Positions 6,572 to 40,720 of a stretch of DNA of 64,000 nucleotides are shown here, piece by piece. The notes beneath the pieces are model-generated. The model had not been told where the DNA came from, ran no database searches, and saw only the letters and a list, made by a program, of their open reading frames with translations. Position 1 is the first letter of the stretch, and every line of letters begins with the position of its first letter. Made by a program: the position numbers and the translations under genes. Source of the DNA: an uncultured Gemmatimonadales bacterium. Lineage in GTDB: Bacteria; Gemmatimonadota; Gemmatimonadetes; Gemmatimonadales; GWC2-71-9. The stretch lies in the NCBI GenBank assembly GCA_963697435.1, contig CAVOOB010000002.1:587681-651680 (forward strand), given 5' to 3'.

Positions 6572-6820
6572 TCAGGTCGGGGGGGTGCTCCGGAGCGATT
6601 GCCGGATCCGGGCGACGACGGCGTCGGGGCAACGCACACCCTTGGCCGCACGCTCGAGCGCCGCAAGGAAATTGCGCTCGAAATGGGCATGCTGGAGGCA
6701 GTGACCACAGGCGGAGAGGTGGCTGGCCACCCGCGTCTCGTTGTCGGGCGTCAGCTCCTCCTTCAGGTAGTCCTGGAGGAGGGCCAGCGCCGCCGCGCAA
6801 TCGAGATTCTGGTTGTTCAT
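6572..6820 (-). CDS. Zinc-binding anti-sigma factor (zf-HC2)
   Basis: LDCAAALALLQDYL...HLSACGHC (HxxxCxxC); 82 aa, soluble; ATGA overlap with the ECF sigma gene. Confidence 0.87.
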   Translation of the reverse strand: MNNQNLDCAAALALLQDYLKEELTPDNETRVASHLSACGHCLQHAHFERNFLAALERAAKGVRCPDAVVARIRQSLRSTPPT

Positions 6821-7434
6821 GATTCCTTCCCGGGGCGCACGACACCCGTCTCGATCGCGTACTCCAGCAGGGTGTGCTGCAGTTGCTTCCGGGCGCGGAA
6901 GAGCCGCGACTTCACCGTACCCACCGGCACGCCGACCGTCTCGGCGATCTGGGCGTAGCCCAGCCCCTCCACGTCGCTCAGGACCACCACCTCGCGGAAT
7001 TCCTCCGGCAGGGCGTCGATCGCGGCGAGGATGCGCTCGTCGACCAGTTCGTGGAAGAACTCCCCCTCGGGATCCCGTCCCGCCTGCTCGTGGACGAGGG
7101 CGTGCTGCTCCGCCACGTCGATGTCGACCGTGACCGGAGTCCGGCGCCGCCGGCGGTAGTCGTTGATGAAGGTGTTCCTCAGGATGGTCAACAGCCAGCC
7201 GCGGGCGTTGGTTCCCTGCCGGAAGGTGTCCCAGGCACGGAAGGCCTTGAGCACGGTGTCTTGCACGAGGTCTTCGGCGTTGGCCGGTTCGCCGGTCAAC
7301 CGCAACGCCACCCGGTACATCACGTCGAGGTGCGGGAGCACATCGCGCTCGAAGGCCGTATCGGTCGAAGGAGTGGTGGACACCGATGGAATGTCCCCGG
7401 TCGCCTGGACCGGGCGCAAGCGCCTCTGGTTCAT
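6817..7434 (-). CDS. ECF sigma-70 factor (SigH/SigR-like)
   Basis: AEDLVQDTVLKAFRAWDTFRQGTNARGWLLTILRNTFIN (region 2); LGYAQIAETVGVPVGTVKSRLFRARKQL (region 4). Confidence 0.94.
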   Translation of the reverse strand: MNQRRLRPVQATGDIPSVSTTPSTDTAFERDVLPHLDVMYRVALRLTGEPANAEDLVQDTVLKAFRAWDTFRQGTNARGWLLTILRNTFINDYRRRRRTPVTVDIDVAEQHALVHEQAGRDPEGEFFHELVDERILAAIDALPEEFREVVVLSDVEGLGYAQIAETVGVPVGTVKSRLFRARKQLQHTLLEYAIETGVVRPGKES

Positions 7435-7465
7435 GAGGCGGTCCGTGGGTAACTTCTGCCCGTCT

Positions 7466-8133
7466 ATGTCTGAGGACTCCCTGCCGTATCCCATGCCGAA
7501 GGTGACCGACGCCGGTGGCACGCCGGCTATCGTGCCGCTCAGCCTGCTCGAGGCGCTCCGCAACCTCGACACGCCCGTCGGCGACGGGCTCGATGAACTG
7601 GCCGGGGAGATCGTGGCCAAGCGCTTCGGGCTTGAGCGCGACCGTGGCCGCGCAGATCCAGCGCTATCAGGAGGCCGATCGGCGGGGCGCCGGCGGTGCC
7701 GCTGGACGAGACGGTCGGGGTCTTCCGCCTGGTCGGCCGTCGCCCCGACGCGGCGCTGGTGTACGCCGATGCCGGCCGCCGAGCGGCGCGATATGCCGCG
7801 CGCGGGGTCTCCCTGCCGGTGCGTTCCCTGATGCGCGCCACGCCACGATTCATTCGATGGCGGGTCGGGGCCGGCGCCGCCACCCGGGCCTCCCGGGGGA
7901 TTTTCGGCGCGCGGCTGACCATCCGGGGCCGCTCCGCGGACGCCGTGATCGGAGACCCATTGTCCTTGCACGCCCTCCCCGACGGGCAGGCGTGCTCCTA
8001 TTATGGCGCGGCGCTCGCTGAGTTGCTCCGCGTCCTCACCGGGTTCGAAGGCGCCATGGTGCACGAGCGCTGCCGCGGCCGGGGAGATGGCACTTGTCGG
8101 TGGCAGGCCGCCGCCGTGGAGGGGTACTCATGA
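7466..8133 (+). CDS. V4R-like domain protein (two apparent +1 frameshifts, ~7631 and ~7692)
   Basis: Three frames join: PLSLLEALRNLDTP...KRFG / LSATVAAQIQRY / VPLDETVGVFRLVGRRPDA. C-terminus CSYYGAALAELL...HERCRGRGDGTCRW has the V4R C/E/C/C pattern. Confidence 0.65.
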
Positions 8134-9454: not shown

Positions 9455-9483
9455 TTGACACGTGATTTCGGTCACGTCATATT
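9455..9483 (+). promoter_or_regulatory. Sigma70-type promoter with a CRP/FNR-like palindrome in the spacer
   Basis: TTGACA (9455-9460), 17 nt, CATATT (9478-9483); the palindrome ACGTGA-tttcgg-TCACGT occupies 9460-9477. Confidence 0.6.
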
Positions 9484-9680: not shown

Positions 9681-12600
9681 ATGAAGCAAAGTTGTGTGAG
9701 CGCCTTCACCCGTGCGGCGCGCTATATCGCGCTGACGGCAGTCGTTCTGGCGACGGGAGCCTCGACGCTCTTCGCCCAGGCCTCGACTGGTAAGATTGAA
9801 GGCAAGGTGCGCGACCAGCAGGGCGCGCCAATCGCGAACGTGCAGGTCATCATCGTCGGCACCAAGTTCGGTGCACAGACCAACGCCGACGGCTACTACT
9901 TCATCAACCTTGTGCCCGCCGGTTCCGTCACGCTGCAGGCCTCGTTCATCGGCTACAAGAAGACGCAGGTCACCGACCTTCGCGTTCTCTCCGGCCAGAC
10001 GATCACGGCCGACATCACGATGGAGTCCACGCCGGTCGAGGTGACCGAGATTACGGTCGTCGCGGCGCAGAACGAATTGGTCCCCCGAGACGCGGTCACC
10101 ACGAAGCAGAGCGTCCAGGGTACCTACACGGACAAGCTGCCGGTCGACCGGATCTCGAACGCCCTCGCGCTGCAGCCGGGTGTCGTGGCCAGCACGGGTG
10201 GCACGACGCTCTCGATTCGCGGCGGCCGGACGGACGAACAGGCCACCTACGTCGACGGCGTGCCCACCGGCGCCGGCAACCGCGGCGGCGGATTCGTCAC
10301 TGCGGGCGGCAACCAGCTCCAGATCGGCACCAACGGCTTCGAAGACGCCTCCATCACCACGGGCGCCTCCTCCGCGGCCTTCGGTGGTGCGCAGTCCGGC
10401 ATCATTTCGATCTCGACCCGGACCGGCGGCGACAAGTTCAGCGGCGCGGTCGGCTATGAGTCCGACGGGCTCCTCGGCAACAGCGTGAGCCTCGGCTTCA
10501 ACCGCGTCACCGCCAGTCTTGGCGGCCCGATCGTCAACAACCTGTCGTTCTTCATCAGCGGCGCGCTCGAAGGGTACGCGAGCCAGGGTGCGGGCCAGAA
10601 TCGCGCCAATTCGCCGTACTTCTCGCGGGCAGGCACCGACACGGTCGTGGCCGTCCCGAGCGCTCTCGGCGACCCGGTCTCCGACACGGCGTACGTCGCC
10701 GTCGACCAGTTCGCCGTCTACACCGGCAAGTGCGACGAGACCATGACGTACGCCGGGATCAACATCCAGAACAGCAGCAATCCTGACATTGCCAACAACT
10801 ACGGCCTCGACTGCCAGGGGATCCGCCTGCCGGGAACCGCGAACTCGAACTACGCGATCCAGGGCAAGCTGAACTACACCTACGGCACCGGCTCGCGCAT
10901 CTTCCTGAGCGCGAACGCCAGTCAGGCCCAGGGGCGCAATTTCACCTACGCGAACCTGTACAACCCGCAGCAGATCTTCGGGAACAACGGCAAGAACAAC
11001 GTCTACACCCTTGGCTGGACGCAGAACCTGGCCAAGTCGTCGGCGCGCGCCCTGGCGCTCGACGTGTCGTTGTCCTACCAGACGGACGAATTCATCCAGT
11101 CGCCGCTGACCCGGCAGTCGGAAGTCGACAGCCGCAGTCCGTGGGGCGGCTTCATGATCTCGCCGCTGGATTTCCAGTTCGATTTCGACAACTTCCCGCT
11201 GAACCAGGAACTGCTCGATAACTTCCAGCAGAACAAGGCGGGCAGCCGGCGCTCTCCGTACGACCTCGAGAACACCGCGCAGTACGCCCTGGTCGACAAG
11301 TGGCGGAACAACGCCTACGGCCTCCTCGGCTTCTCCGAGGCCGGTGGCCCGACGGGCCGGCTCTTCCTGAACCAGGAAAACCGCTTCATCGGCGCGGCGG
11401 CCCTCGACTGGCAGGTCGACCGCTACAACCGCCTCAAGATCGGTGGCGGCTTCACCAACTTCGACATCAAGTCGTACTCGTCGCAGCTGGTCAGCCAGGC
11501 CTTCTCGGATTTCTATATGGAGAAGCCGACCTCGTGGACTGGTTACGCCGAAGACCGCCTCGACCTCGGTGACGTGGTCCTCGTGGCGGGCCTCCGGTAC
11601 GACTACTACAACTCGAATGCCTCACACCCGCAGTACTGCGACTCCACCGGGTGCCAGCCGACCGTCCGTATCTCGAGCAATCCGCTCTGGGATCCGAACG
11701 ACGTGCAGGGCTCGCTCGACACCATTTACACCCCGGACTCGTCGCACGACTACCTGTCGCCGCACATCCAGGTGTCCTTCCCGGTGAGCGACCGCACCAA
11801 CATGCGGTTCTCCTATGCCCACCAGGTCCAGCCACCGGACTTCGCGCTGGTGCTCGGCGGGATCAACACCGACCTGGCCGTGACGAACACCAACCACGTC
11901 TACGGGTCGGACCTCGACTTCGGCACGACGATCACCTTCGAGTTCGGCATCCGGCACGCCTTCTCGGATGACTTCGTGCTCGACTTCTCGGCCTATAACC
12001 GCGACGCCCAGTCCAACCAGGCTGGCCGTCTGCTCTCGCTGTACGATCCGCTCAAGCTGCAGAATCAGGACGTCCGGATGATGACCAACCAGGACTACGG
12101 CAACTACCGTGGTTTTGACATCCGGATCGACAAGCGGATCGGGAGCCTGTTCAACGGCACGCTGGCGTATTCCTTCAGCGACGCCAAGAACACCGGCTCG
12201 GATCCGTTCACCTACATCAACTTCGGTTCACGGATCGTCAACCAGATCAGCGGTGGTAACGACCCGCCGCCGTCGGCCTACCTGCCGACGACCTACACCC
12301 GGCCGCACAACCTGGCCGGCTCGTTCTCCATGACCTTCCCGAACGAGTGGAACGCCGGGTCGACGATGGGCAGCATCCTCGAGAACGTCGGCATCTTCGC
12401 CACGTTCCGTGTGGCCAGCGGCACGGCCTACACCCGCTGCCCGGTGGAAACCGGCAACGAGTCGGTCATCTCCCCGGGCGTCTGCGCCCGGCAGTTCGAG
12501 GGCGACGTCAACGGCTCGCGGCTGCCCACCTTCCGGAACACCGACCTTCGGGTCACCAAGGGCTTCCGGTTTGGCGGCGTGGACCTGACGGGGTACGTCG

Positions 12601-12998
12601 ACGTCCGCAACCTGTTCAACTTCACCAACACCACCCAGGTCTTCGCCGAGAACAACAGCATCGAGAACACGGTGGAGCTCGACGAGACCTGGTCGGGCGA
12701 CTCCGCGGGGTACGCGGATGAAGCCAGGGCGTCGGCGGCCTATGACGCCAGTTCCGGCGACATGTTCCTGCCCAGCACGGGCGGTTGCGGTAACTGGGTG
12801 ACCCAGGACGGCAAGGCGGCCGCGCCGAACTGCGTGTACCTGATCCGGGCCGAAGAGCGTTTCGGTAACGGTGACGGCACGTTCACGCAGGCGGAACAGC
12901 GCCGCGCGTCGGAGGCGAATTACTACACGAACCGCAGCGAAGCGAGCTTCACGGCCGCCCCGCGGCGGATCCGACTCGGCTTGGAGTTGAATTTCTAA
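9681..12998 (+). CDS. TonB-dependent receptor with N-terminal carboxypeptidase-regulatory-like domain
   Basis: GGAGGA RBS, signal peptide LFA/Q, GKIEGKVRD...TNADGYYFI, plug motif LSIRGGRTDEQATYVDGV, AGLRYDYY, C-terminal PRRIRLGLELNF. Confidence 0.92.
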   Translation: MKQSCVSAFTRAARYIALTAVVLATGASTLFAQASTGKIEGKVRDQQGAPIANVQVIIVGTKFGAQTNADGYYFINLVPAGSVTLQASFIGYKKTQVTDLRVLSGQTITADITMESTPVEVTEITVVAAQNELVPRDAVTTKQSVQGTYTDKLPVDRISNALALQPGVVASTGGTTLSIRGGRTDEQATYVDGVPTGAGNRGGGFVTAGGNQLQIGTNGFEDASITTGASSAAFGGAQSGIISISTRTGGDKFSGAVGYESDGLLGNSVSLGFNRVTASLGGPIVNNLSFFISGALEGYASQGAGQNRANSPYFSRAGTDTVVAVPSALGDPVSDTAYVAVDQFAVYTGKCDETMTYAGINIQNSSNPDIANNYGLDCQGIRLPGTANSNYAIQGKLNYTYGTGSRIFLSANASQAQGRNFTYANLYNPQQIFGNNGKNNVYTLGWTQNLAKSSARALALDVSLSYQTDEFIQSPLTRQSEVDSRSPWGGFMISPLDFQFDFDNFPLNQELLDNFQQNKAGSRRSPYDLENTAQYALVDKWRNNAYGLLGFSEAGGPTGRLFLNQENRFIGAAALDWQVDRYNRLKIGGGFTNFDIKSYSSQLVSQAFSDFYMEKPTSWTGYAEDRLDLGDVVLVAGLRYDYYNSNASHPQYCDSTGCQPTVRISSNPLWDPNDVQGSLDTIYTPDSSHDYLSPHIQVSFPVSDRTNMRFSYAHQVQPPDFALVLGGINTDLAVTNTNHVYGSDLDFGTTITFEFGIRHAFSDDFVLDFSAYNRDAQSNQAGRLLSLYDPLKLQNQDVRMMTNQDYGNYRGFDIRIDKRIGSLFNGTLAYSFSDAKNTGSDPFTYINFGSRIVNQISGGNDPPPSAYLPTTYTRPHNLAGSFSMTFPNEWNAGSTMGSILENVGIFATFRVASGTAYTRCPVETGNESVISPGVCARQFEGDVNGSRLPTFRNTDLRVTKGFRFGGVDLTGYVDVRNLFNFTNTTQVFAENNSIENTVELDETWSGDSAGYADEARASAAYDASSGDMFLPSTGGCGNWVTQDGKAAAPNCVYLIRAEERFGNGDGTFTQAEQRRASEANYYTNRSEASFTAAPRRIRLGLELNF

Positions 12999-13010
12999 CG
13001 TGAATGATCC

Positions 13011-13062
13011 ACGGTGGATGAGGGGGCGGCGCGCCGAACGGCGCCGCTCCCGCATCTCACCG
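13011..13062 (+). promoter_or_regulatory. Intercistronic stem-loop without U-tract
   Basis: CGGTG/CACCG, GATG/CATC and GGGGGCGGCGC/GCGCCGCTCCC nested pairings. Confidence 0.55.
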
Positions 13063-13089
13063 AACAGTATTCATCTGAGAGAGGATGCA

Positions 13090-16000
13090 ATGCACTCACC
13101 ATTCCGTAAGAGGGGCGTCATTCTGGCAAGCCTGCTGGCGCTTGCGCTGGCGGCGGCGCTGCCGTCGCACGCGTCGGCTGAGCCGGAGCCGGGAGCCAAG
13201 AAGGCCACTGGATTTCGGCTCTTCGCCCGGCCGCTGGGCGCCATGACTATCAACCGGATCTATTGCGGCCTGTCATCCGACGGCCAGATCTGCGTTGACT
13301 CGACCAACTCGTCCACCATCGGTGGCGGCTACTGGCCGAAGGGCACCGCCGACCAGTACATCTTCAACACCGGCCTCCAGTTGGCCGGCATCGTGGGTAC
13401 GGACGGTGGTCCCTGGGCCGGCGATACCACGGGCGCGTTCTTCTTCGACCCGAAGGGCACGACCCAGCACGGCACCCAGGTGGAACCGATCTACAACATG
13501 GCCGGCACCGCGGATTACAACACGGTGTGCAACCCGGACGTGACCGACGTCTGCCAGGGCGGCAGTATCGATGCGGCCTTTGTCCCCTTCGGGGACGAGT
13601 CGGCCGACATCTTCAGCAGCCTGCTGACCGGCAGCCCCGGCAACCGCAAGGCGCAGGCGTCGCAGGGTGACGTCTGGTGGATGTCCTGGGACGGCGACCC
13701 GGCACTGAACGCCGGCCGCAGCCACCCGCTCGGCGTCGTCGTCGAGACCCGCGGCATGGGGTGGAACTTCCCGTCGGGCAACGAAGACATCATCTACTTC
13801 ATCTATACGTTCTATAACATCACGACGACCAACCCGGCCGACTACGCCGCCGTCCGGCCGGAAATGCAGTCCATCCTGCTCGACAAGGCGCAGGAGTTCC
13901 AGGCCAAGAACAACGCCACGTTCGGCGTCAACCTGCCGACGGGCGGCTACACGATCGATGACCTGTACGCCGCGTTCGGCACCGACATGGACGTGGCCTC
14001 GGCCGGCACCAACTACGCCAGTGTCAACCTGCCGTTCGCGCTGGGTTACACCTACGTGCAGAGCTTCGCGGGTACGACCGGGTGGACCTTCGATCCGGGC
14101 GGCACCACCTTCCAGGCGCCGTTCTTCGAGGGTGCCGGCTTTGCGGGCATCAAGTACCTGAAGAGCCCGGCCGGTCCAGGCGCCATTCAGCTCTACTCCA
14201 ACACCATCAACGGCTCGCCGTTCCCGGGGGCGTTCAACGACCCGCAGAACACCATCCAGCTCTGGCGCTACCTGTCGGGCAACATTTCGGTGCCGGCCGG
14301 CGACCAGCCGTGCAACACCGGCAACCCGACCGTCAGCAAGATCTGCTGGATCAACAACACCACGGCCGCCGACATGCGGTTCTACCAGTCCTCCACCGGC
14401 TTCTCACTGCCGCCGGGCGGGCAGGGCTCCATCGTCGTCGCGTACATCTTCGCGGCGCCCGTAGCGGTCCCCGGCTGTCCCGCCGGTGGCGCGGTCTGCG
14501 GTGGCGGCAACCTCAAGCCGGGTAACCCGACCATCCTCGGAGATCCCGTTGCCATGGCGGGTGGCGTCAACCTGGTCGACAGCATCTCCGGGTACATCAG
14601 CGCCACCGACCTCGACGGGAGCGGCGTGTACGAACAGGCGGGCACCATGGGGCCGGAATGGACCGTGGTACCGGGCTCGCTCCTCGGCAAGTCCTACACG
14701 GCGCAAGCGGTGTTCGACGCCGGGTTCCTCCTTCCGTTCGCCCCGGTTCCGCCATCGTTCTTCCTGATTCCAGGTGACAATCAGGTGACGATCATGTGGC
14801 AGCCGTCGACGTCGGAAATCGAAGGCGACCCCTACTATTCGATCGCCTCCGACCCCGCCAGCGCGCTTTACGACCCGAACTATCGTCAGTTCGACGTCGA
14901 GGGCTATCGGATCTATCGGGGCCGCACCGACAACCCCGACGGTCTGTCGCTCATCGCATCCTTTGACTATACCGGCACCGTCTTCAATGACTACGACGGC
15001 GTGATCAATCCGGTGAAGACCTGCGCACCGGAACTCCTGATCCCGGACCCGATGGCGACGCCGGACTGCCCGGTGCTCTTCGATCCCGTCGCGCCGGGTG
15101 TGCCACGTACCACGGCCAATACGGTCAATATCGTGAGCCCGTTCGTCACGACGAAGTTCGGCGGCCGGCTTGAACTGGCCACCGGCGACGCGATCCTGAC
15201 CCAGGTGGACACCGTGGTGACCGGCGGGGCCTCCGGCCTTCCGCCGATGACCAACAGCGGCGTCCCGTTCGTGTTCGTGGATAACGGGGTGCGCAACAAC
15301 TTCCGTTACTTCTACGTGGTCACCGCGTACGACGTGAACTCGTGGTCTTCGGGTCCGACCAGCCTCGAGTCGCCGAAGGCGTCGACCATCTCGGTCACGC
15401 CGCAGGCACCGGCGTCCAACTACGAGAACAGCGCCGTCCTGAGCAGCGGCATCTATGGCCGTGATGTGGCGCTGGACTACCAGGCGCCGTTCCCGGCCAT
15501 CGATGGCAGCCACGGGCCGGTTTCGCCGGCCCGATGCCGGCGGCCGACGCCTGGACGGTGGGCTTCCAGGACTTCGTCCAGCAGGTCATCAGCGCGCCGG
15601 GCAACTTCGCGGTGAAGCTCGACAGCATCACCCTGGGGTCGTCGTACGACGGCATCCCGGTGGAGTACCACATGACCGCCGTCAGCGGTCCCAACTCCGA
15701 GTCGTTCACCGTTTCCATGGCGCAGGTTTCCACGGAAGGCACGGTCACGGCCTCGGGAGCGTTCAACGCGGTCCAGATCGACGGCACCCTCGCGTCGATT
15801 TACGGAGGAAACAGCAACTACTTCCTCAAGGGCGAAGCCAGCATGACGCTGTATGGCACCTACCACACCGGCGGGTACGGCCGTGGTTGCGTCAACAGCG
15901 CCACCGGCTTCGGCAGCACCCGCGAGTGCGCCTACAACGGCCCACGCTGGTTTGCCGGCCCGTCGCCGCAGAACAACGAGACGAAGGTGGACCCGCAGGC

Positions 16001-17110
16001 TACGGCAACCCCGCCAACTTCACCACGCAGACGGTGGATGTGACGCTGCCGCTCAGCGCCGGCTGGAACAACGCCGGCGAACTCCCGGGCGTCCTCGTGG
16101 TCCACAACCCGCAGTCGTATGAGACCATCCAGACGACCTTCCGCCAGATCGAAGGGATCGGGTCGGGAGCCAAGCGGGCGGCGGATTACAACGTCTACTG
16201 GGGCGCAGCCGGCAAGGTTGACTCGGTGATCGACATCACGCACAATGTGCCGGTGCCGTTCAACGCCAACACCTACCGTGGCGGCTGGGGTATCCTGAAC
16301 GCCGCGGCGGCGAACAACCTGACCAGCTACGACACCCGGCTGCAGCTCACCTATGCTGACGTCGGCTGCGTGGAACCGTATAAGTCGATCGCCGGCGCGC
16401 AGGCACTGATACCCTGCCCCGGTCCGGCGTACGCGCTCAGCCAGACGGCCATTCCCGGCCCGACGGCGTTCATCACGACCTCGTTCGCCAACGCCACCTG
16501 GGGCGCCAAGAACGCGCCCGTCGCCGCCAACCCGGGCTTCATCATGCTGCTCGGTGGCGAGATCTACCAGTTCATGCTCGATGCCGCCGGCACGCTGCCG
16601 GCCGCGGGCACGGTCTGGTCGGCGCGTGACTACATCGGCGCCATCCAGGGCGGTAACGGATTCGGCGGCAACTACGGGCCGTACATCTTCACCACGGCGA
16701 GCGGAGACGATCCCAGCAAGCCGACCCGGACCTTCAGCGCGGTTGGTGCGGAGCTTCGTGCCAACTACGATGTTGTGAACCAGGTCAACTCGGTGTCGAA
16801 CCTCGACCTGACCAAGATCCACACGGTGCCGGATCCCTACTACGTCACGAATGAGTACGAAGTCGACTACACGTCGAAGATCATCAAGTTCGTGAATCTT
16901 CCGACGCAAGCGACGATCCGTATTTACTCGTCGAGCGGCATTCTGGTCCGGGTGTTGAATTATGAGTCCGCCGAACTGGGCGGCATGCTGGACTGGAACG
17001 TCCGTAACCGGAACAACCAGGTTGTCGCAAGTGGAGTGTACTTCTATCACGTCGAATCGGGCGATGCGCGCTTCATCGGGCGCATGACCATCGTCAACTT
17101 CGCCAAGTAG
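13090..17110 (+). CDS. Large secreted protein (~1340 aa) with FN3-like domain and T9SS-type/FlgD-like C-terminal domain; frameshifted near 15505, 15521 and 16000
   Basis: Signal peptide; FN3-like PGDNQVTIMW...EGYRIYR...FVDNGVRNNFRYFYVVTAYD; C-terminus IHTVPDPY...IKFVNLPTQATIRIYSSSGILVRVL...WNVRNRNNQVVASGVYFYHVE...GRMTIV. ORFs 13000, 15534 and 15455 join with consistent codon usage. Confidence 0.78.
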
Positions 17111-17171
17111 CCACGCCGGGGGTGGGGGGAACATCTCCCCCCACATCCCGCATCCAGGAGACAGAATACTT

Positions 17172-18293
17172 ATGAAGCGGCACACTGCGCATGGGTTGGC
17201 CCTGGCGGCGCTGCTGATCGGCGGGTTGCCCGTGGCCCTTGCGGCCCAGGCATCCGAGATCAACGCGGACAACACGCCATACGGTACGACGTCGGGAGAG
17301 TTCCTTCTCCTCGGCGCCAGTGCCCGAGGCGCCGCCCTCGGCAACGCCTTTCAGGCGATCGCCAACGACGTTTCGGCCCTCTATTACAATCCGGCTGGCG
17401 TCGCCATGATGGAGCGCCCCGGAGTCCTCATCTCGACCTATTCGTACGTGGCCAACACCACGTACAGCTGGGGTGGTATGGCCTTCCCGTTCTCGGGCGG
17501 TGCCCGGGCGGTCGGCCTCCACCTCGGGACCTTCGGGTTCAAGGACCAGCCGGAATACACGGTCGAGCTCCCTGACGGCACCGGCGGCGTCTATTCCGTC
17601 AGCGAATCGTATCTCGGCCTCACCTATGCCGAAAACTTCTCGGATCGCTTCTCGGCCGGTATCACCGCCAAGGGCGTCTTCGATCAGCTCGGCGAGGTCA
17701 GCGGGAGCGCGTTCGCGGTGGACTTCGGCACCAATTTCCATTCGGCGCTGAACAATCACCCGATCAAGTTCTCGTTCGTCATCCAGAACCTCGGCACCAA
17801 CCTGAGCTACAGCGGCGACGCGCTGAACGTGGGCGTTCCGCGGACTCCGGTCGAGGGCGAAGATGACGTGCCGAACAACCCACAGCCGGGATCCTACCGG
17901 ACCAAGGCGTTCGCGCTGCCGACCACCTTCACGGTGGCCGTGGCCTACGACATCATCGCCAAGGCCAACACCCGGTGGACCATCCTGGCCGACTTCAACC
18001 AGCCGAACAACACCAGCGCTGGCTACGTCTTCGGCACGGAGTTCGCCTTCCCGCAGATGGGTGGCAGCAACTTCAACGGCTCGGTCCGCGGCAGCTACAG
18101 CTATGCCTCGGCCAACTCCGGTCAGGACGTGAGCGGCAGCCAGCTGAACGAAGAGCAGAGCTACCAGGGCACGGCCTTCGGCGGCGGGCTCAGCTACACG
18201 ACGGAGTCGTTTAACCTCGGGTTCGACTATGCCTGGAAGTACATGGGCATCCTCGGCTCGACCAACTTCTTCACGTTCAGCATCGGCTGGTAA
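17172..18293 (+). CDS. PorV/PorQ (UPF0164)-family outer-membrane beta-barrel
   Basis: Signal peptide LAA/Q; EFLLLGASARGAALGNAFQAIANDVSALYYNPAG (FadL/PorV N-terminal motif); AFAVDFG; aromatic C-terminus FTFSIGW. Confidence 0.85.
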   Translation: MKRHTAHGLALAALLIGGLPVALAAQASEINADNTPYGTTSGEFLLLGASARGAALGNAFQAIANDVSALYYNPAGVAMMERPGVLISTYSYVANTTYSWGGMAFPFSGGARAVGLHLGTFGFKDQPEYTVELPDGTGGVYSVSESYLGLTYAENFSDRFSAGITAKGVFDQLGEVSGSAFAVDFGTNFHSALNNHPIKFSFVIQNLGTNLSYSGDALNVGVPRTPVEGEDDVPNNPQPGSYRTKAFALPTTFTVAVAYDIIAKANTRWTILADFNQPNNTSAGYVFGTEFAFPQMGGSNFNGSVRGSYSYASANSGQDVSGSQLNEEQSYQGTAFGGGLSYTTESFNLGFDYAWKYMGILGSTNFFTFSIGW

Positions 18294-18343
18294 TCGGCGT
18301 GATGCGACGGCAGCGACTCCGGTTGCTGCCGCCCAGGAGCATA

Positions 18344-19783
18344 ATGGTTCGTTGGTTTTCGCTGGCCCTGGCGGCCGGCGTCCTCGTCGCCCCGACCCGG
18401 ATCGGGGAGCGACAAGCCGAAGATGTGATGGCGGTCCGGGCGGTTCGGTTTTACCGGGCCGATAGCCGCCAGACATTGGTCAAGGCGTTCGTCCAGATTC
18501 CGTACGTCGGGTTCTCCAACGACGGCGGCAGCGAAACCAGGAACCAGGTTACGTACTTCGTGACCGTGAAGGTGTCCGACTCGACTGGGCTCGGACTGTT
18601 GCAGGAGGGTTGGACCAACCACGTCGCGAGGGCCCTGGCGGTTCCGGGCGTGGTCGGGTTGGAAATGCTGGAGTTCCCTGTCCTCCCCGGCCAGTACGTG
18701 CTGGACGTGACCGTGGAAGACAGTGTGACGGGGTGGAAGGCATTCGCCACCACCGCCATCGAGGGATTCCGGTCGCCGCCACCGGTGTCAGACCTGCTGC
18801 TCTCTCCGGAAATTCGGATGGCAGCCCCGGGAGACACGGTGCCACGGCCGGGAGAGTTGCGGATCGGGACGTTGCTGGTGACCGGGGCCGTCGAACTGCA
18901 CCTGACGCCGCTCGAGAGCCAGGCCTACTACCTGATCGAAGCGTACAGCGAAGCGGCAGCCAACGGCACGCTGTCGGCCACCATCCGCGACTCGCTGGGG
19001 AAGACGATCTTGAAGACGCCGCCGGCGGCGGTCAGCGTGCCAGCCGGGGGAGGAGTCCTGAAGGGTCAGCTGGACCTGACGGGGTTGCCCGAGGGAGAGT
19101 ACACCATGGCGGTGTCGGTGGACCTCGGTGGAGTCACGTCGGAACGGACGCAGCCATTTTCCATGGCGAATCTCGAGGAGACGCTCGCCAAGGAAGCGGC
19201 GAGGGTGGAGCAGGAACGACGGACCGATGCGGGCTACTTTGCCGCCATGAACGAGGCGCAGTTGGACAGCGCCGCCGGCCCGCTCCTCTACCTCGCGACG
19301 CCAGACGACGGGCTGAACTTGTACAAGGACCTGAGCGTCGACGCGAAGCGCCGTTGGCTGACGGAATTCTGGACTCGCCGGGACTTGAGTCCCGGGGTGG
19401 CACGGAACGAGACGCGAGAGAATTTTTACGAGGCGGTCGCCTACGCCAACCGGCAGTTCAAGGTCGGCGGACGACGCACCACTCCAGGGTGGCGCACCGA
19501 CCGGGGCCGGATCTACGCGAAGTATGGCCCGTACGACGAATACCTCGACCGCGTGTCCCAGGGCCAGGCACCGCCCTACCAGGTCTGGCGATACACGCAG
19601 CAGAAGGACCGATATTTCATCTTTGTAGACCGGAACAATCTGGGCGAGTTCCTGTTGATTCACTCGAACGACCTCACCGAGGTCTCCAGGCCGGACTGGC
19701 AGGAAATCCTGACGGCCGATGGGGTGATTGATGTGGGGCGCTGGCTGGGCGTGAACTTCTTCCCGACATCGGGCGTCCAGTAA
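18344..19783 (+). CDS. GWxTD domain-containing exported protein
   Basis: AGGAG RBS; WLTEFWTRRD...NETRENFYEAVAYANRQF...PGWRTDRGRIYAKYGP...YQVWRY...YFIFVD. Confidence 0.9.
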   Translation: MVRWFSLALAAGVLVAPTRIGERQAEDVMAVRAVRFYRADSRQTLVKAFVQIPYVGFSNDGGSETRNQVTYFVTVKVSDSTGLGLLQEGWTNHVARALAVPGVVGLEMLEFPVLPGQYVLDVTVEDSVTGWKAFATTAIEGFRSPPPVSDLLLSPEIRMAAPGDTVPRPGELRIGTLLVTGAVELHLTPLESQAYYLIEAYSEAAANGTLSATIRDSLGKTILKTPPAAVSVPAGGGVLKGQLDLTGLPEGEYTMAVSVDLGGVTSERTQPFSMANLEETLAKEAARVEQERRTDAGYFAAMNEAQLDSAAGPLLYLATPDDGLNLYKDLSVDAKRRWLTEFWTRRDLSPGVARNETRENFYEAVAYANRQFKVGGRRTTPGWRTDRGRIYAKYGPYDEYLDRVSQGQAPPYQVWRYTQQKDRYFIFVDRNNLGEFLLIHSNDLTEVSRPDWQEILTADGVIDVGRWLGVNFFPTSGVQ

Positions 19784-19867
19784 TCAAGTTCTGACTTTCA
19801 AGGGAGTTTCACTGCAGGACGCCGGAAAGAGCCGCTTTCCACCGTCTTCCGAGAACGAGGTACAAGT

Positions 19868-20923
19868 ATGACACGTATGATTCGTGGTTCGGTCGTGCTC
19901 GCCGCCTGTGTCGGAGTTTTGTCATGCACGGGGGGCGACCCCACATCCGGTTCGCCGGGCGTGCCGAACAATATCGTCGCGCTGCCGGCCATCGTGAACA
20001 TCAGCGCCAATGCCACGGAGCTGATCGGCTTCCAGCTTGTCGATGACAACGGCGGCCAGATCCCCACCACCTGGTCGATCGGGGCCACCCCGGCCGGGTT
20101 TTCGGTCGTCATCGATTCGAGCTTCCGCCCGGTCTACAATTCGGACGGGACGCTCACGCTGCCGAGCGAGCAGACGGAGATTCGGGCCACCATTTCCGGC
20201 CTGATCCCGAGCAGTGGATCGTTCACTGTCTCCGCGAGTGGCAAGTCGATCACCATTCCTGTCACGGTCATCAACGACGCCCTGCCGGCCACCTTCAACA
20301 CCACCACCCCCAACATCGGGCAGCCACTGGTGGTCACCATGCCGGCCGGCCTGACCCTCAACGCGGACGCCACCTACGCCTTCGATGGCGCGGATGCCCC
20401 GATCGTCGTCTCGCAGGCGGCGGACGGCAGTTCCGTCACGCTCCTCGTGGCGCCTGGGACGGCGGCCCCGCTCGATGTCGCCGGCATCACGGCCGACTAC
20501 GCGCCCACGCTGACCCTGACCTTGAGCACCACCGAGACGATCACCGCGACGGGCACGTCGGATTACGTCGGGACGGACGATCCCTCCACGGCGCCGGAAA
20601 TCGCCTTGCCGACCGTGGTCGGGGGATCGGTGTCGTTCTATGACATTCCTTCTGCGGTCGACCAGTTCTACAAGATCGTGCTGACTGCCCCGAGCACCAT
20701 CACGGTCGGCACCGATTGGGCCGATCACGCAGCGGATATCGACCAGCTTTGGCTGGACGGCACGTTTGCGCTGATCCCGCCGTTTACCGCGGCGACCGGC
20801 TCGGCGCCCGAAGCCTCCACGGCGGTGTTTGCGGCCGGAACGTACTACATCTACGTCAACCAGTACGATGGCGATCCGGGTGCCTGGTACAAGATTACGA
20901 TCACGCTGGACTCGCAGCCGTAA
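19868..20923 (+). CDS. Lipoprotein, Thr/Ser-rich with Ig-like and PPC-like domains, function unknown
   Basis: Lipobox GVLSC; beta-rich sequence; C-terminal DQFYKI...ADID...AAGTYYIYVNQY...YKITITL. Confidence 0.7.
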   Translation: MTRMIRGSVVLAACVGVLSCTGGDPTSGSPGVPNNIVALPAIVNISANATELIGFQLVDDNGGQIPTTWSIGATPAGFSVVIDSSFRPVYNSDGTLTLPSEQTEIRATISGLIPSSGSFTVSASGKSITIPVTVINDALPATFNTTTPNIGQPLVVTMPAGLTLNADATYAFDGADAPIVVSQAADGSSVTLLVAPGTAAPLDVAGITADYAPTLTLTLSTTETITATGTSDYVGTDDPSTAPEIALPTVVGGSVSFYDIPSAVDQFYKIVLTAPSTITVGTDWADHAADIDQLWLDGTFALIPPFTAATGSAPEASTAVFAAGTYYIYVNQYDGDPGAWYKITITLDSQP

Positions 20924-20955: not shown

Positions 20956-20985
20956 AACGCCCCCTGCCGACCGGCAGGGGGCGTT
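20956..20985. terminator. Terminator hairpin between convergent genes
   Basis: 13-bp stem AACGCCCCCTGCC / GGCAGGGGGCGTT followed by TG. Confidence 0.75.
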
Positions 20986-21039
20986 TGTCATTGGGGCTGC
21001 GCCGGCCGTGCCGGTGGCCATTGACGGGTGGGGCGGCAC

Positions 21040-22434
21040 CTAGCGCGTCGGCTCGCCCCTGCCGGCGGTGTAGAGCGACGTCAGTCGCTGCGCACGGAAC
21101 ACGTACCTGCCGTCGAGCCCGGTCAGCTCCCAGGTCCGGTTTCCCGCCGGATCCACCTCGATGACACGGCCGGCCCGCCCGAAGGACACCGTCGCGTGGC
21201 CGTCCGGGTGAAACTGGGTGGCCCCTCCCACCACGGTCCATGTGGTCGGCGCGTCGATCGCCTGCCATTCGAGCGCGGCGTTGCCGGCGGCGGGGTTCAT
21301 GAGATAGCGTACGAGCCGACTGGGCGCCGCCAGACCATTGTCCAGGAACTGGACATGCCCGGGGCCGGCCAGCCGGACGCCGTGCTGCCGCTCGAAGCTC
21401 CCCTTCGGGTCATTGAGCAGGGTGAATTGGTTCCGCAAGCCGCCGAAGCGCCAGATGACCGCGCCTGTGACCCGATCGACCTTGGTGACCTCGCTCAGGC
21501 TGCGGAAACCGAGGAGCAGGTTGCCGTCAGTGTCGAAACCGAGCCCGTTGCCGTGTGTGAAATTGACGTTTGGCCCCGTCCGATCGATCAGGGGCAGATC
21601 GGTGATGTCGAAGTGGTCGAAGGCATTCCATTCCCACAACAGCGCACCGCTCGCAGACAAGTGCTGAACGACCGTAGCCATCACCGACGCGGCCGCGTCC
21701 CCCCCGACGCCGCTCAGGTCCATCACCCGGGTCTCATCGCAGAGCATCCATGCGTCACCCCCGGCATCGACCAGGACCTCATGGAAGCGGGTCGGGCGCC
21801 CCGCGCAGGTCAGAGTGCCCGTTTGCTCGCCGAGGGCATTGAGCACTCGAAACTCCGTCTCCGGGGCTCCGCTGCCCAGAATCGTATAGACCCCGGCCGG
21901 GTGCGCCTGGAAGGAATTCAGGACACCGTTGGGGGAATGGTGGTACCAGACCACCTTCCCGGAGTTGTCCACCGTGACCGCGCCGTCCGGCAGGGAGAGC
22001 GCGACGTAGCCCGCCTGCGACGAGGTGCCGAGGCTCCCGATCGCGGGAATCCAGCCCGGGAGTGATCCGGTGGTGAAGACGAGAGAATCGACCGTCCGCT
22101 CCGCCGCCCCCGCCAGCATCAAGACGACCCGAAACGTGTATGCGGTGGCGGTGTCGAGCCCAAGGACGGGGATTCGCACGGCCGTTTCACCTGCAAACCC
22201 GATTGCTGGAGTGCTGGCGGGCGGGCTGCCGGCACTTCCCTGGTACTCGATGTAGGCGCTGTCGTACCCCACGGCTCGGACCATCACAGCCGCCGAGATG
22301 GCGTTTTCCGGAATCTGCTGGACTTCCGCCCCTTGGTACTGCTGGGCGGTGGGAGCCTGCGTGTCTCCATCGATGCATCCGGCTACCGCGATCAACGACA
22401 CGGCGGCGGTCAAGCCGCGAGAATAGCTGGTCAT
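21040..22434 (-). CDS. Arylsulfotransferase (ASST)-family lipoprotein
   Basis: Lipobox AVAGC; VRIPVLGL N-domain; WEWNAFDHF, FTHGNGL, FERQHGVR, YVFRA beta-propeller motifs. Confidence 0.82.
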   Translation of the reverse strand: MTSYSRGLTAAVSLIAVAGCIDGDTQAPTAQQYQGAEVQQIPENAISAAVMVRAVGYDSAYIEYQGSAGSPPASTPAIGFAGETAVRIPVLGLDTATAYTFRVVLMLAGAAERTVDSLVFTTGSLPGWIPAIGSLGTSSQAGYVALSLPDGAVTVDNSGKVVWYHHSPNGVLNSFQAHPAGVYTILGSGAPETEFRVLNALGEQTGTLTCAGRPTRFHEVLVDAGGDAWMLCDETRVMDLSGVGGDAAASVMATVVQHLSASGALLWEWNAFDHFDITDLPLIDRTGPNVNFTHGNGLGFDTDGNLLLGFRSLSEVTKVDRVTGAVIWRFGGLRNQFTLLNDPKGSFERQHGVRLAGPGHVQFLDNGLAAPSRLVRYLMNPAAGNAALEWQAIDAPTTWTVVGGATQFHPDGHATVSFGRAGRVIEVDPAGNRTWELTGLDGRYVFRAQRLTSLYTAGRGEPTR

Positions 22435-26740: not shown

Positions 26741-26868
26741 GGTCGGATTGGGCTCCTTGACCCCGGGCTGGCGAAGCGTAAGTTTTTCGGCCATCATAGC
26801 CGTTGTATCGCCTGATGCCGAAGTCCCTGTCTGACGTGCGTCTTTTTCACTCCAGTCGAGGTGTCCCT

Positions 26869-29800
26869 ATGCAGTCATGGTTTCGTCGGGTAGCGACCGC
26901 GACGGCCGCAGGCGTGCTGTTGACGCTTGGCGCCGGCACTCTGTTCGCGCAGGGCGTCACGACGGCGGCAGTGACCGGGACCGTCACGCAGGAATCGGGG
27001 GCGCCGGTCGAAGGCGCCGTCGTCACGCTGACCAATCGCGGCACCGGCGCGAAGATCACCGCGACCTCCCAGGGGAACGGCAAGTTCTTCATGGAGAACG
27101 TGACGGTCGGCGGCCCGTACACCATCGAGGCCCGCGCCATCGGCTTCGAGGCGGCGCGGCGCGACAACGTGATGCTCTCCCTCGGCCAGCGTTTCGTGTC
27201 CAACTTCACGCTGCGGCAGCAGATCGTGGAACTGCAGGAGATCGCGGTCAACGCCGAGACGGGCGACCCGGTCATGAACACCGCCAAGACCGGCGTGGCC
27301 CAGTCGATCGGCGACACCGCCATCAACCGGCTTCCGATTCTCGGCCGCAACTTCCAGGACCTTGTGGCCACGACGCCGCAGGTGGCGAACGTCGGCGCGG
27401 GCGTGTCGGCCGGCGGCCAGAACAACCGCTTCAACAGCATCCAGATCGACGGTGGCGTCAATAATGACCTCTTCGGCCTCGGTGCCAGCGGTGTGCCGGG
27501 CGGCCAGGCCAACGCCAAGGCCATTTCGCTCGAGGCGGTCAAGGAGTTTCAGGTCCTCATCGCGCCATACGACGTGCGGCTGGGCAATTTCGCCGGCGGC
27601 CTGATCAACGCGGTCACGCAGTCGGGCACCAACAAGTTCGGTGGGTCGGTGTTCGGGTATCTGCAGAACCAGGACCTGGTCGGTACGGACGTCAACGGAG
27701 AAAAGTCCGCCGACTTCCGGGTGCTGCAGTATGGCGGCACGCTGAGCGGCGCCATCATCAAGGACAAGCTCCACTACTTTGCCGCGGCCGACATTCAGCA
27801 GCGGACGACGCCGTTCGACGGGATCACGTATGCGGAATCCGGTGCCGATCCCGGCGATGCCGACCGGATGATCGCGCACCTGAACTCGCTCGGCGCCGAG
27901 CAGTGGGGCGGGGCGGGGGATGCCGGGGGCTTCACCATCGAGAACCCGAACCCGACGTATTTCGGGAAGCTCACCTGGTCGCCGGCCCCGAACCAGAACG
28001 TCTCGCTGTCGTACAACAACGTCGAGGCGTCGGTGGATGTCATTTCCCGCCGCCAGAACGGCCAGTGGCAGATGACGTCGGGCGGGTACCAGATCCAGAA
28101 CAACACCAATTCGCTGCGACTCATCTGGAGCGGCGTGTTCAGCGGGAAGTACTCCAACGAGTTCATTGCCGGCTTGCAGTCGGTCCGGGACAAGCGCGCG
28201 CCGACCACCACGTACCCCACGATCCTCATGAACTCCGGCGGGACCGGCACGCAGCTCGTGGCCGGCGCGGAGCGGTTCTCGCAGGCCAACTCACTCGACC
28301 AGGACATCTACGAACTCACCGACAACCTGACCGTCGGTATCGGCGATCATCGTGTCACCATCGGTACCCACAACGAGTTCTTCGGCTTCAATAACGTCTT
28401 CTTCCCGCAGAGCATCGGGCAGTGGACCTTTGCCAACATCGACTCCTTCGAGAACAACGCGCCGGTCCGGTTCGACCGCGCGCTGCCGCTCCGTGAGGGT
28501 GGCCCGACGGCCGACTTCAACGTGAACCAGTGGGGCCTGTACGTCCAGGATCAGTTCAATCTCGGGCCGGTGGTGCTGACGGCCGGCATCCGGTGGGACA
28601 ACCCCATTTTCCCCGATGCCCCGGCCTACAACCCGGTCCTCGATTCGGTCACGTCCGATCCAAACCTCTGGACCGGTGGCACCATCAACACCAGCGTGGT
28701 GCCGAGCGGCAACGCCACCTGGTCACCCCGCCTCGGCTTCAACTGGGATGTGAACGGCCAGGGAATGACCATCGTGCGCGGCGGCGTCGGCTACTTCGGG
28801 GGCCGCCCGGCCTATGTGTGGATGGCGAATGCGTACGGCAATACCGGCATGGAACAGACCCAGCTGACCTGTCGCAACGACAACGCCGATCCGCTCGACG
28901 ACGTCCCGACCTTCTCGCTCGATCCGAACCAGCAGCCCACCACCTGCGCCGGGGGCGCCGGGCCGCGCCAGTCGACGCCAACCATCAACTATTTCGACCC
29001 CAGCTTCAAGTTTGAACAGAACATGAAGCTGTCCTTGGGCATGGACCAGCGGTTGCCATGGGGGATGGTCGGCACGATCGACCTGATCTATACGAAGTCC
29101 CAGAACACGCTCTATATCCAGGACAACAACCTGGTCGGCGTGGTGGACGAGAGCACGCTCACCTACGCGACCGGGGAAGGCAACCGGGCGCGCTACGGGG
29201 TGAACTCCCTGAGCAGCGGCTCGGCCACGCCGAACCGCCAGACCTCCGTGGTCGGGCCGGTGCTGCAGCACCTGAACAAGTCCGAGGACCACGTCTTCAG
29301 CGGCACCATCCAGCTGCAGAAGCGCTTCTCGAATGGCATCGAGTTCAACGGCGGCTACACCTACAGCGACGCCCAGGACGTGATGTCGCTGACCTCGAGC
29401 ATCGCCTTCTCGAACTACGGTTTCGCCACCCTGAACGGTCTCCTGAACGAGCGCGACCTGACGACCTCCACCTTCAGCCGCCCCCACCGGGTGGTCCTGA
29501 GCGGCACGGTCAACCTCCCCGGCGACTTCGACTTCTCGCTGATCTACTCCGGCGTGTCGGGCTCGCCGTTCGGGTACGTAATCAACGGCGACGCCAACGC
29601 CGACGGCGTCGGCGGCACCAACCGCGAATTGAACGACATGTTCTACATTCCTCGGGACCAGGACGACATCACGATGTACGGCCCGACCCCGAGCGCGTCG
29701 TACGACTCGTTGGCGAATTTCATCAACAGCCAGCCGTGCATGCGCAATCAACGGGGCCAGATCATGGAGCGGAACAGCTGCCGCAACCCCTGGATCAACA

Positions 29801-32837: not shown

Positions 32838-32852
32838 GGCGGGCCCGGACGG

Positions 32853-32881
32853 TTGAACCGGAATTTTTCGCGCGCTATATT
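32853..32881 (+). promoter_or_regulatory. Sigma70-type promoter for sprA in the 88-bp divergent lptF/sprA gap
   Basis: TTGAAC, 17 nt, TATATT. Confidence 0.6.
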
Positions 32882-32925
32882 GCCGTGGTCCCTCTCCACC
32901 ATCGCCTCTCATCTCCCGGACACGC

Positions 32926-39872: not shown

Positions 39873-39944
39873 CCGCGCGAATGGGCTCCGCCTGGCGCTC
39901 GTGCGATCTCGCCGTACCCGGTCGGCCCTGGCATCCTCAAGGGC

Positions 39945-40589: not shown

Positions 40590-40641
40590 ACCCATATATA
40601 GCAATGGTTTGAGTTGTCAGGTGAGGCATGAATGCAATACA

Positions 40642-40657
40642 TGGCACGGGAATGGCA
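40642..40657 (+). promoter_or_regulatory. Sigma54 -24/-12 promoter of pilB
   Basis: TGGCACGGGAATGGCA (GG-N10-GC), preceded by an AT-rich IHF-like stretch TAGCAATGGTTTG. Confidence 0.62.
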
Positions 40658-40720
40658 ACTCGCCCCACCGGCTACTCCTGTCCACTTCGATGACCTCCAC
40701 CCCCGAGGGGCTGCGCGAGC

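Follow-up and report, generated by a model that had tools for sequence, protein, structure and literature searches.

The described systems closest to the locus reported here are the SusC/SusD (RagA/RagB) pairs at the core of polysaccharide utilisation loci in Bacteroidota and the barrel-anchored proteins in type IX secretion systems (T9SS). In the former, a TonB-dependent transporter of about 1,100 amino acids (aa) with a carboxypeptidase-regulatory-like N-terminal domain is encoded adjacent to its surface-exposed partner SusD, a lipoprotein of the TPR type; a genome holds numerous such pairs, diverged from one another and with genes for regulators and hydrolase-like proteins near them, and the partner diverges faster than the transporter. 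In the T9SS of P. gingivalis, according to PMC5562754, PorU and PorZ, which are attached by way of PorV and PorQ, keep their C-terminal domains (CTDs), and in porU mutants uncleaved cargo accumulates bound to PorV; a review (PMC10202324) proposes that cognate PorV-like barrels shield CTDs from cleavage. PMC9143113 and PMC10202324 also describe type-B CTD proteins on PorP/SprF-like barrels (for example, SprB-SprF), in which a dedicated barrel paralogue is encoded beside its T9SS substrate, and in the Bacteroidota β-barrel assembly machinery (BAM) the extracellular loops of BamG, a FadL/PorV-like barrel, anchor the surface-exposed protein BamH (PMC12611786 and PMC12578637). Here we analyse a stretch of 64,000 nucleotides (hereafter the window; G+C around 67%) from the genome of an uncultured Gemmatimonadales bacterium, which consists of 2.9 Mb in 9 contigs with an estimated completeness of 90.5% and is designated G000 (genomes and loci of relatives carry G- and L-numbers, respectively). 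Five co-oriented genes on the plus strand at 9681–20923 encode a TonB-dependent receptor, a large FN3/CTD protein (named Big in this study), a PorV/PorQ-family barrel, a GWxTD protein and a lipoprotein candidate (Table 1). The receptor-Big-PorV module within this cassette combines two known kinds of system and looks previously undescribed as a unit, no description of a receptor-CTD-PorV unit having been found in our searches of paper texts, although supplementary gene tables may bear on it.

On balance, and with modest confidence, we favour the reading that the cassette is a three-part outer-membrane module, comprising a TonB-dependent transporter, a partner exported by SprA that has a binding fold of the glycan-enzyme type, and a PorV-family anchor, that works like the SusC/SusD pair. 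This reading is built on gene content and order, on their conservation, amplification and co-divergence, on predicted folds, and on the nesting of Big in SprA-positive genomes. From these we infer that Big, exported by Sec, would cross the outer membrane via the single SprA, which is encoded 12 kb downstream, and would be captured through its CTD by the cassette PorV. A PorU sortase was not found in the window genome, and for this reason Big would remain attached to PorV at the cell surface permanently, without a covalent link. In this position it would bind a polymer as its substrate (most probably a glycan) and hand this over to the transporter, with which it would be in contact; its role would be that of SusD and of the surface glycan-binding lipoproteins in Bacteroidota.

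The three genes occur as an amplified unit in genomes of the Candidatus Glassbacteria type. All 13 genomes of this family (f10) contain at least six partial matches to Big each, in open reading frames (ORFs) of 1,000–1,200 aa, and the NCBI names on relatives of one of these Big-like proteins include Candidatus Glassbacteria and Gemmatimonadota bacterium. Sixteen such places from six genomes were searched with hidden Markov models built from the cassette proteins. A cassette-type receptor gene was found directly upstream, on the same strand, at all 16, and a PorV-family gene directly downstream at 14, the two exceptions being one fragmented Big locus and one contig end. The numbers of PorV-family genes in five Glassbacteria-type genomes are 10, 11, 13, 14 and 23. 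In the genome with 23 (G010), 21 places were examined, and 18 of these follow a Big-like gene, comprising 16 full triplets and two that are cut by contig ends; of the remainder, one is located at a contig end and two lie outside triplets, namely a PorQ-like gene and a PorV gene beside a true PorU gene. The Big-like proteins of these genomes have signals of the signal peptidase I type and typical CTD termini, and their best NCBIfam match is the C-terminus of PorZ.

Comparison of 12 complete G010 triplets yielded distance matrices for receptor, Big and PorV that are correlated at r = 0.95–0.97, a value reached in none of 1000 permutations. The median p-distance is largest for Big (0.55), followed by the receptor (0.47) and PorV (0.38), and the putative surface partner thus diverges faster than the transporter, as in SusC/SusD. 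The co-evolution analysis that the preliminary description of this locus had called for found the three genes to co-diverge within one genome; the triplets have been duplicated and have diverged as units, with no swapping of partners, a pattern that does not imply contact between the proteins. The genes that flank the triplets include those for response regulators, a sigma-54 activator and beta-helix proteins, as well as for a GDSL/TPR protein, an AXE1/S9-like hydrolase and one weak match to GH123, and this layout, by analogy, resembles that of polysaccharide utilisation loci (PULs). Five genomes of the group (G007, G010, G013, G027 and G037) each contain one true PorU gene (555–594 bits), located directly beside a PorV-family gene (for example, at L118 and at G010:C186:21483-24707), together with a total of 23–35 matches to the PorU model per genome, nearly all of them to its CTD part.

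Among the relatives of the window genome, a scan with one genome per species gave 80 loci, from which 79 rows with a usable N-terminal part of Big were obtained (78 loci plus the window). The order receptor-Big-PorV is present in 56 of the 79 rows, and in a further 12 the receptor is present and the contig ends before PorV is reached, so that the neighbourhood survey proposed earlier shows the order to be conserved across Gemmatimonadales. However, the flanking genes for an M24 peptidase, an ABC transporter and UbiA are also syntenic in the family, and for this reason conservation of the cassette within the order is in itself weak evidence. Public relatives are labelled Gemmatimonadales or Gemmatimonadota, except for one locus under Acidobacteria and one under "uncultured bacterium". 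Our survey of the phylum covered 151 sampled genomes. Of the 71 that belong to the window's family, 41 have full-length Big, and it was found in none of the genomes of two other families (31 and 16, respectively).

Duplications within these relatives have retained parts of the module. Four paralogous loci (L038, L043, L048 and L051), in which receptor and Big are followed by a Ser/Thr kinase gene and PorV is absent, form one clade in the Big tree (support 99), and the full-length receptors of L038, L048 and L051 likewise group as a clade in the receptor tree (support 100), that of L043 being partial. Since the same loci form clades in both trees, the receptor and Big genes have been duplicated together as a pair, and they are still adjacent at about 50% identity. 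In two genomes with a full cassette a 5.2-kb segment, consisting exactly of Big and PorV, is present twice, the second copy being located in a different context at 93.7% and 97.7% DNA identity, respectively. The kinase gene 3' of receptor and Big in L043, L048 and L051 could be a regulatory link.

The cassette receptor has an N-terminal CarboxypepD_reg domain (PF13620, 68.6 bits) and a Plug domain scoring 28.7 bits against a cut-off of 23.9 (PF07715), which places it among the TonB-dependent transporters by the plug. In contrast, the SusC/RagA model (TIGR04056) gives 50.1 bits against a cut-off of 368.25 and covers only positions 2–207 of 981; receptors of Glassbacteria triplets give 35.8 and 44.5 bits with the same model. 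As a single-sequence query the receptor matched no solved structure, and a profile of 32 cassette receptors matched PfeA (5out, E = 3.7e-16, profile positions 132–423) and also PirA, Cir, PqqU, YncD and PhuR (positions 608–757). An EITVVAA motif after the N-terminal domain, read by eye, is a possible TonB box. To judge from these matches, the receptor is a TonB-dependent transporter that lies outside the SusC family and has an N-terminal domain resembling that of SusC. The SusD model (PF07980) was found in none of six genomes of the genus, G000 included, and in none of the 13 of the Glassbacteria family, with a positive control in B. thetaiotaomicron, in agreement with the earlier suggestion that uptake here is free of SusD. 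Thus, the cassette shares with SusC/SusD the size and domain plan of the transporter, an adjacent gene for a predicted surface-exposed partner, and the multiplicity and surroundings of the units. It differs from them in that the partner, Big, is a β-rich protein of 1,100–1,340 aa with a signal of the signal peptidase I type and a T9SS CTD rather than a TPR-type lipoprotein, and in that each unit has a third gene, which encodes the PorV-family barrel.

The barrel matches the PorV/PorQ family model NF033709 with 132.8 bits over positions 1–324 of 326 (cut-off 90), but falls below the equivalog cut-offs of both PorV (NF033710, 41.7 against 250) and PorQ (NF033711, 64.9 against 220); it is best assigned as a member of the PorV/PorQ family that belongs to neither of the named orthologues. 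PorV of F. johnsoniae (6h3i_F) matches it at E = 1.7e-5. It was thought earlier that Big has a PorV paralogue of its own. In the window genome this does not stand, because the cassette gene is the sole strong match to the PorV family, i.e. the organism's PorV, the next match being under the cut-off at 31.8 bits; it does stand in Glassbacteria and in genomes with two copies. As in SprB-SprF, a barrel is encoded beside the putative T9SS substrate, but the cassette barrel belongs to the PorV/PorQ family and not to PorP, the CTD is type A-like, and the unit contains a TonB-dependent transporter. As in BamG-BamH, extracellular loops of a PorV-like barrel may anchor a surface-exposed protein; however, in that system the anchored protein (BamH) is a lipoprotein and the barrel (BamG) a component of the BAM complex, with no CTD, SprA export or transporter partner.

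Big was modelled by AlphaFold on 49-row alignments, once as residues 1–809 of the window copy (mean predicted local distance difference test score, pLDDT, 85.9) and once as the homologue P0245 (pLDDT 86.0), which is N-terminally truncated, starting near residue 537; the CTD fold result rests on P0245 and not on the window copy. Residues ~45–548 are predicted to form a galactose-mutarotase-like β super-sandwich, for which the best match is the N-domain of the bacterial glucoamylase 1lf6 (Z 18.6, 233 residues aligned, root-mean-square deviation (rmsd) 2.8), followed by those of glucodextranase (1ulv, Z 18.2) and of GH94 phosphorylases (Z 15–17), so that the matches to GH15 and GH94 N-domains span Z 15–18.6. 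Residues ~549–775 form a predicted FN3 domain with a large insertion (Z ~12), and further β domains are predicted besides. TM-scores from Foldseek on both models of ~800 residues were low (0.14–0.22), and the VIA alignments were more informative. The closest fold to the last ~100 residues is the CTD of PorZ (5m11, Z 13.6, 92 residues aligned, rmsd 1.9, 26% identity) and the second closest is that of PorU (6za2, Z 10.6–10.7). Both exceed the CTDs of the cargo proteins mirolase (8qb1, Z 8.1–8.9), NucA (8glk_D, Z 8.6), FspA and RgpB (overall Z 7.7–8.9), and both also outscore generic Ig-like domains. By sequence the CTD is borderline: TIGR04183 gives 19.3–22.4 bits against a cut-off of 23 (23.9 with neighbours in frame), and CHU_C and Por_Secre_tail (PF18962) give 12–21 bits, all below cut-off, for six intact Big homologues. 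The original assignment of FN3 and a T9SS CTD to Big is thus borne out for both domains by fold.

Because adjacency of porU and porV is classic, the identity of Big as a divergent PorU or PorZ was considered, and it was rejected because only the CTD matches. The PorZ model (NF052228) gives 30.3 bits against 260 and covers only positions 684–740 of 757, the Big profile matches the PorZ structure 5m11 at E = 0.04 in the CTD only, and the PorU model (NF033707) gives 13–15 bits against 420 over positions 988–1076, which are those of the CTD. Moreover, the N-domain is predicted to be a super-sandwich and not a peptidase, and true PorU is present in the Glassbacteria genomes. Thus, Big resembles PorZ and PorU in the structure of its CTD and in the presumed retention of that domain, uncleaved, on a cognate PorV-family barrel (for PorZ-PorQ and PorU-PorV, PMC5562754 and PMC10202324), and the Big and PorV genes adjoin as porU and porV do in Glassbacteria genomes, but Big shares nothing detectable with either protein outside the CTD. 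The Big-PorV pair is also distinct from both in being linked to a TonB-dependent transporter and in being multi-copy, and from PorU-PorV in coexisting with a true PorU-PorV pair in Glassbacteria, while no PorU was found in the window genome.

A complex of residues 27–373 of the cassette PorV with the last 114 residues of Big was also modelled. The model scored 0.88 (runs 0.89, 0.87 and 0.88), and the best of three controls scored 0.00. At the score mark used, 58 of 80 solved complexes pass, as do 2 of 110 mismatched pairs. The runs had at least 81% of their contacts in common, and the pLDDT of the partner was at least 76. The idea that Big is tethered by an uncleaved CTD is consistent with this result and with the nearest CTD folds being the two that are known to remain uncleaved on PorQ and PorV.

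The presumed export route is represented in the window by the SprA homologue, a single open frame of 2,037 aa located 12 kb 3' of the cassette. In the window genome the PorU model matches only the CTD of Big and no PorU was found; type-A CTD matches number two, including Big, which is present in one copy. SprA was detected in 121 of the 151 sampled genomes of the phylum. All 61 Big-positive genomes, a set that includes the unpublished genome G062, are SprA-positive, the Big and SprA lists having been matched by genome handle, and the 13 genomes of the window's family in which SprA was not detected are all without Big; these counts overstate the support because kin are not independent. Big is nested within the SprA-positive genomes. 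The second type-A CTD match (G000:C3:318200-318502), a frame of 171 aa with 21.8 bits (25.1 with neighbours), may be the only other T9SS client of this organism.

Besides the kinship that inflates these counts, several points weigh against the three-part module. Adjacency and co-duplication are signs of a common history and, probably, a common function, and not of a complex; and PorV-CTD complexes have already been solved (e.g. 8glk), so that the good score of our complex model may show likeness to them and not binding by this pair. Of the 71 genomes sampled in the window's own family, 30 lack Big, in the clade of L062, L064 and L066 it lies beside a MATE transporter gene with neither receptor nor PorV adjoining, and the window's copy contains two frame breaks. 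Models of GldL, GldM and PorP found nothing in G000, its genus or Glassbacteria, with no control genome above cut-off. The GldM_1st model responded in one control genome, below the family cut-off, and the GldM models were silent even in Glassbacteria genomes, in which PorU, SprA and tens of CTD proteins are clearly present; we rejected this silence as evidence of absence because there was no positive control and the models may not reach this phylum. Finally, the super-sandwich fold is found also in enzymes and in YidC (Z 11.9), and residues ~800–1240 of Big, around 440 in number, have no fold match, the lists being filled by FN3 and CTD matches; a catalytic role for Big would be compatible with both. 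A new fold for residues ~250–697 of the P0245 model is not inferable from such lists.

The main rival to the module reading is built on that role: the triplet and the export route would be the same, but Big, instead of serving as a passive binding lid, would act at the surface as an enzyme by which a polymer is cut or modified, the products being taken up by the transporter. The nearest folds to its N-domain all come from glycoside hydrolases, phosphorylases and mutarotases, the acidic, histidine and arginine columns D194, D299, D428, H212 and R210 show no or almost no variation in an alignment of 49 sequences, and hydrolase-like genes are located beside some triplets; the ~440 unmatched residues also speak for an enzyme. 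However, in the enzymes matched by Big it is the non-catalytic N-domain that is aligned, and the (α/α)6 catalytic domain that accompanies it in enzymes of the 1lf6, 1ulv and GH94 type has no counterpart in the model of residues 1–809. Furthermore, the window copy and six intact homologues have no Pfam or NCBIfam family besides weak C-terminal matches, and hence no catalytic one, in line with the earlier remark that no catalytic motif could be recognised. We consider an enzymatic Big to be unlikely.

A weaker rival, which we consider distinctly improbable, is that Big and PorV constitute a surface-coat, adhesin or secretion housekeeping pair like PorZ-PorQ, and that the transporter, whose substrate would be unrelated, is a neighbour merely by synteny or co-regulation. 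The CTD of Big is most like that of PorZ, Big and PorV have been duplicated by themselves in two genomes, Big paralogues without a receptor exist, the cassette PorV is the only strong match to its family in the window genome, and synteny in the family extends over the whole region, M24 peptidase, ABC transporter and UbiA genes included. These features speak for such a pair, but the Glassbacteria genomes already own a true PorU-PorV pair and a PorQ-like gene and yet have at least 10 extra triplets. In addition, the receptor is present at every one of the sampled Glassbacteria places and co-diverges with Big and PorV, and in the old paralogue clade it is the receptor and Big that have been kept together, without PorV.

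In the window, Big is read in three frames (Table 1). It is colinear with an intact orthologue of 1,337 aa (P0001); its three pieces are open and 88–93% identical to the latter, with zero residues lost. Logan contigs from four public runs of three studies, 90–99% alike to the window and with a share of sampled words of at most 0.43, were compared over positions 15300–16300. Each contig covering a break is two letters shorter than the window, at 15508–15524 in three runs and at 15996–16002 in all four, and the window thus carries two 2-letter insertions relative to its relatives. Because all three pieces are still open and conserved and the relatives lack the extra letters, the breaks are probably assembly errors. 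That Big is a true pseudogene in this organism, with two frameshifts and a cassette that is non-functional here whatever its role elsewhere, is suggested by the two frame changes within 500 nucleotides (nt) and by a likewise interrupted copy in L067, the closest relative among the loci compared (91–98% identity over most cassette proteins, 67% for the lipoprotein), but this is very improbable given the intact pieces, the shorter public contigs (three of the four spanning the first break) and the strong conservation of a family with more than 1,000 homologues.

The Big family itself comprises 1,054 matches at E ≤ 0.001 among 8,000 scored candidates, and 672 clusters in a library of 50% representatives. 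The proteins are mostly 1,290–1,400 aa long, besides shorter fragments, and are named only "hypothetical protein" or "T9SS type A sorting domain-containing protein"; the 150 listed representatives all have the amino-acid make-up of high-G+C genomes. Near clusters labelled Ignavibacteriota (0.98) and Fidelibacterota (0.91) exist, as unconfirmed labels only.

If the module reading is true, TonB-dependent nutrient import and type IX secretion, which have been studied apart so far, become linked, and PorV-family barrels would be permanent, substrate-specific anchors, many per cell, and not shuttles alone. It would also explain how bacteria of the Fibrobacteres-Chlorobi-Bacteroidetes (FCB) group that have no SusD give large transporters a surface binding partner. 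More tentatively, the module may represent a third architecture for TonB-dependent capture of polymers in Gemmatimonadota, beside SusC-SusD and transporter-plus-lipoprotein, in which a T9SS-delivered partner sits permanently on a private PorV-family barrel and the triplet has diversified in the manner of PULs, to at least 16 copies in one Candidatus Glassbacteria genome. In the small genomes of the window lineage, by the same tentative proposal, SprA and one PorV would have been kept almost solely for this client, without PorU and perhaps without the GldLM motor. This lineage, with one SprA, one PorV, two CTD matches and no PorU found, is a natural minimal case for what SprA needs. The signature of a receptor, a Big-like CTD protein and a PorV paralogue could serve as a tool to find uptake loci in Gemmatimonadota, none such having come up in our literature searches.

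The two remaining genes of the cassette are located 3' of these three. The GWxTD protein scores 74.4 bits with TIGR04514 (cut-off 28) and 38.5 bits with PF20094 (cut-off 26.9); a literature search found no description of the GWxTD domain, and a single-sequence search against solved structures returned only chance-level matches. In most canonical loci a GWxTD gene is found 3' of PorV, and the lipoprotein gene usually comes next, its product being poorly conserved, at 27–47% identity, and at 67% in L067. Both genes lie outside the 16 sampled Glassbacteria units. The five-gene unit of the preliminary description therefore holds in the window lineage but not as the module, since the amplified unit has three genes without these two, and the GWxTD protein and the lipoprotein are lineage-specific accessories of a three-gene module. 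The window genome contains three GWxTD genes, of which the other two are at G000:C2:313378-313686 and G000:C1:13505-13849, within open frames of 521 and 776 aa.

The layout that was described for the five genes, co-oriented with short gaps between one promoter and one terminator, is recovered, with intergenic gaps of 91, 61, 5 and 84 nt in order. The promoter evidence is weak, with three sigma-70-like sites seen in the region against 1.8 expected. The likely terminator is a 12-bp G+C hairpin at 20957–20984, 34 nt past the last stop codon, followed by TTGTCATT; folding of the region gave −69.6 kcal/mol (z = −4.0). An automated terminator scan made no plus-strand call and missed this hairpin. 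The coordinates of all features are given in Table 1.

Table 1. Positions of the cassette genes, the parts of Big and associated features in the window
Feature	Position	Strand	Basis or remarks
Sigma-70-like promoter site	9455–9483	+	TTGACA-17-CATATT, 10/12; 5' of receptor gene
TonB-dependent transporter, 1,105 aa	9681–12998	+	Signal peptide, carboxypeptidase-regulatory-like N-terminal domain, plug, barrel
Big, ~1,338 aa, whole gene	13090–17110	+	Read in three frames
Big frame-1 part, residues 1–809	13090–15516	+	Signal peptide; predicted super-sandwich ~nt 13222–14733; predicted FN3 with large insertion ~nt 14734–15414
First frame break, frame 1 to 3	15517–15521	+	Colinearity with P0001; 2-letter difference from public contigs
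Big frame-3 part, residues ~810–969	15522–16001	+	92.5% identity to P0001 residues 809–968; β-rich
Second frame break, frame 3 to 2	16002–16003	+	Colinearity with P0001; 2-letter difference from public contigs
Big frame-2 part, 368 aa	16004–17110	+	Ends in T9SS type-A CTD (~nt 16811–17107)
PorV/PorQ-family outer-membrane barrel, 373 aa	17172–18293	+	NF033709, 132.8 bits
GWxTD-domain protein, 494 aa	18299–19783	+	TIGR04514, 74.4 bits; PF20094, 38.5 bits
Lipoprotein candidate, 351 aa	19868–20923	+	...VLSC lipobox, read by eye; no family
G+C-rich hairpin and T-rich tail, likely intrinsic terminator	20957–20992	+	Fold energy of region
SprA (T9SS translocon) homologue, 2,014 aa	32926–38970	+	TIGR04189, 469 bits summed

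A sixth co-oriented ORF of 345 aa, with no Pfam family, is located 3' of the hairpin at 21028–22065 (plus strand), and a counterpart after the lipoprotein gene exists in 8 of the 80 loci, at 33–62% identity. Upstream of the cassette, ORFs from L001 and L002 map in two window frames at ~7454–8127; this mapping is ambiguous, representing either a possible frame break or the antisense shadow of a minus-strand gene at 6817–8127. A second large outer-membrane protein is encoded at 26803–30075 (plus strand), with CarboxypepD_reg and OMP_b-brl_4 (181 bits) domains; it is of a receptor type unlike that of the cassette, and neither Big nor PorV adjoins it.

The SprA gene stands back to back with two LptF/LptG permease genes at 30157–33185 (minus strand), and in many genomes of the family SprA and Big are on one contig, spaced roughly 14–27 kb apart. 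The region 3' of SprA, at 38967–42433 (plus strand), encodes an M28 peptidase, a ComEA-like helix-hairpin-helix protein and a type II/IV secretion ATPase (T2SSE, 463 bits).

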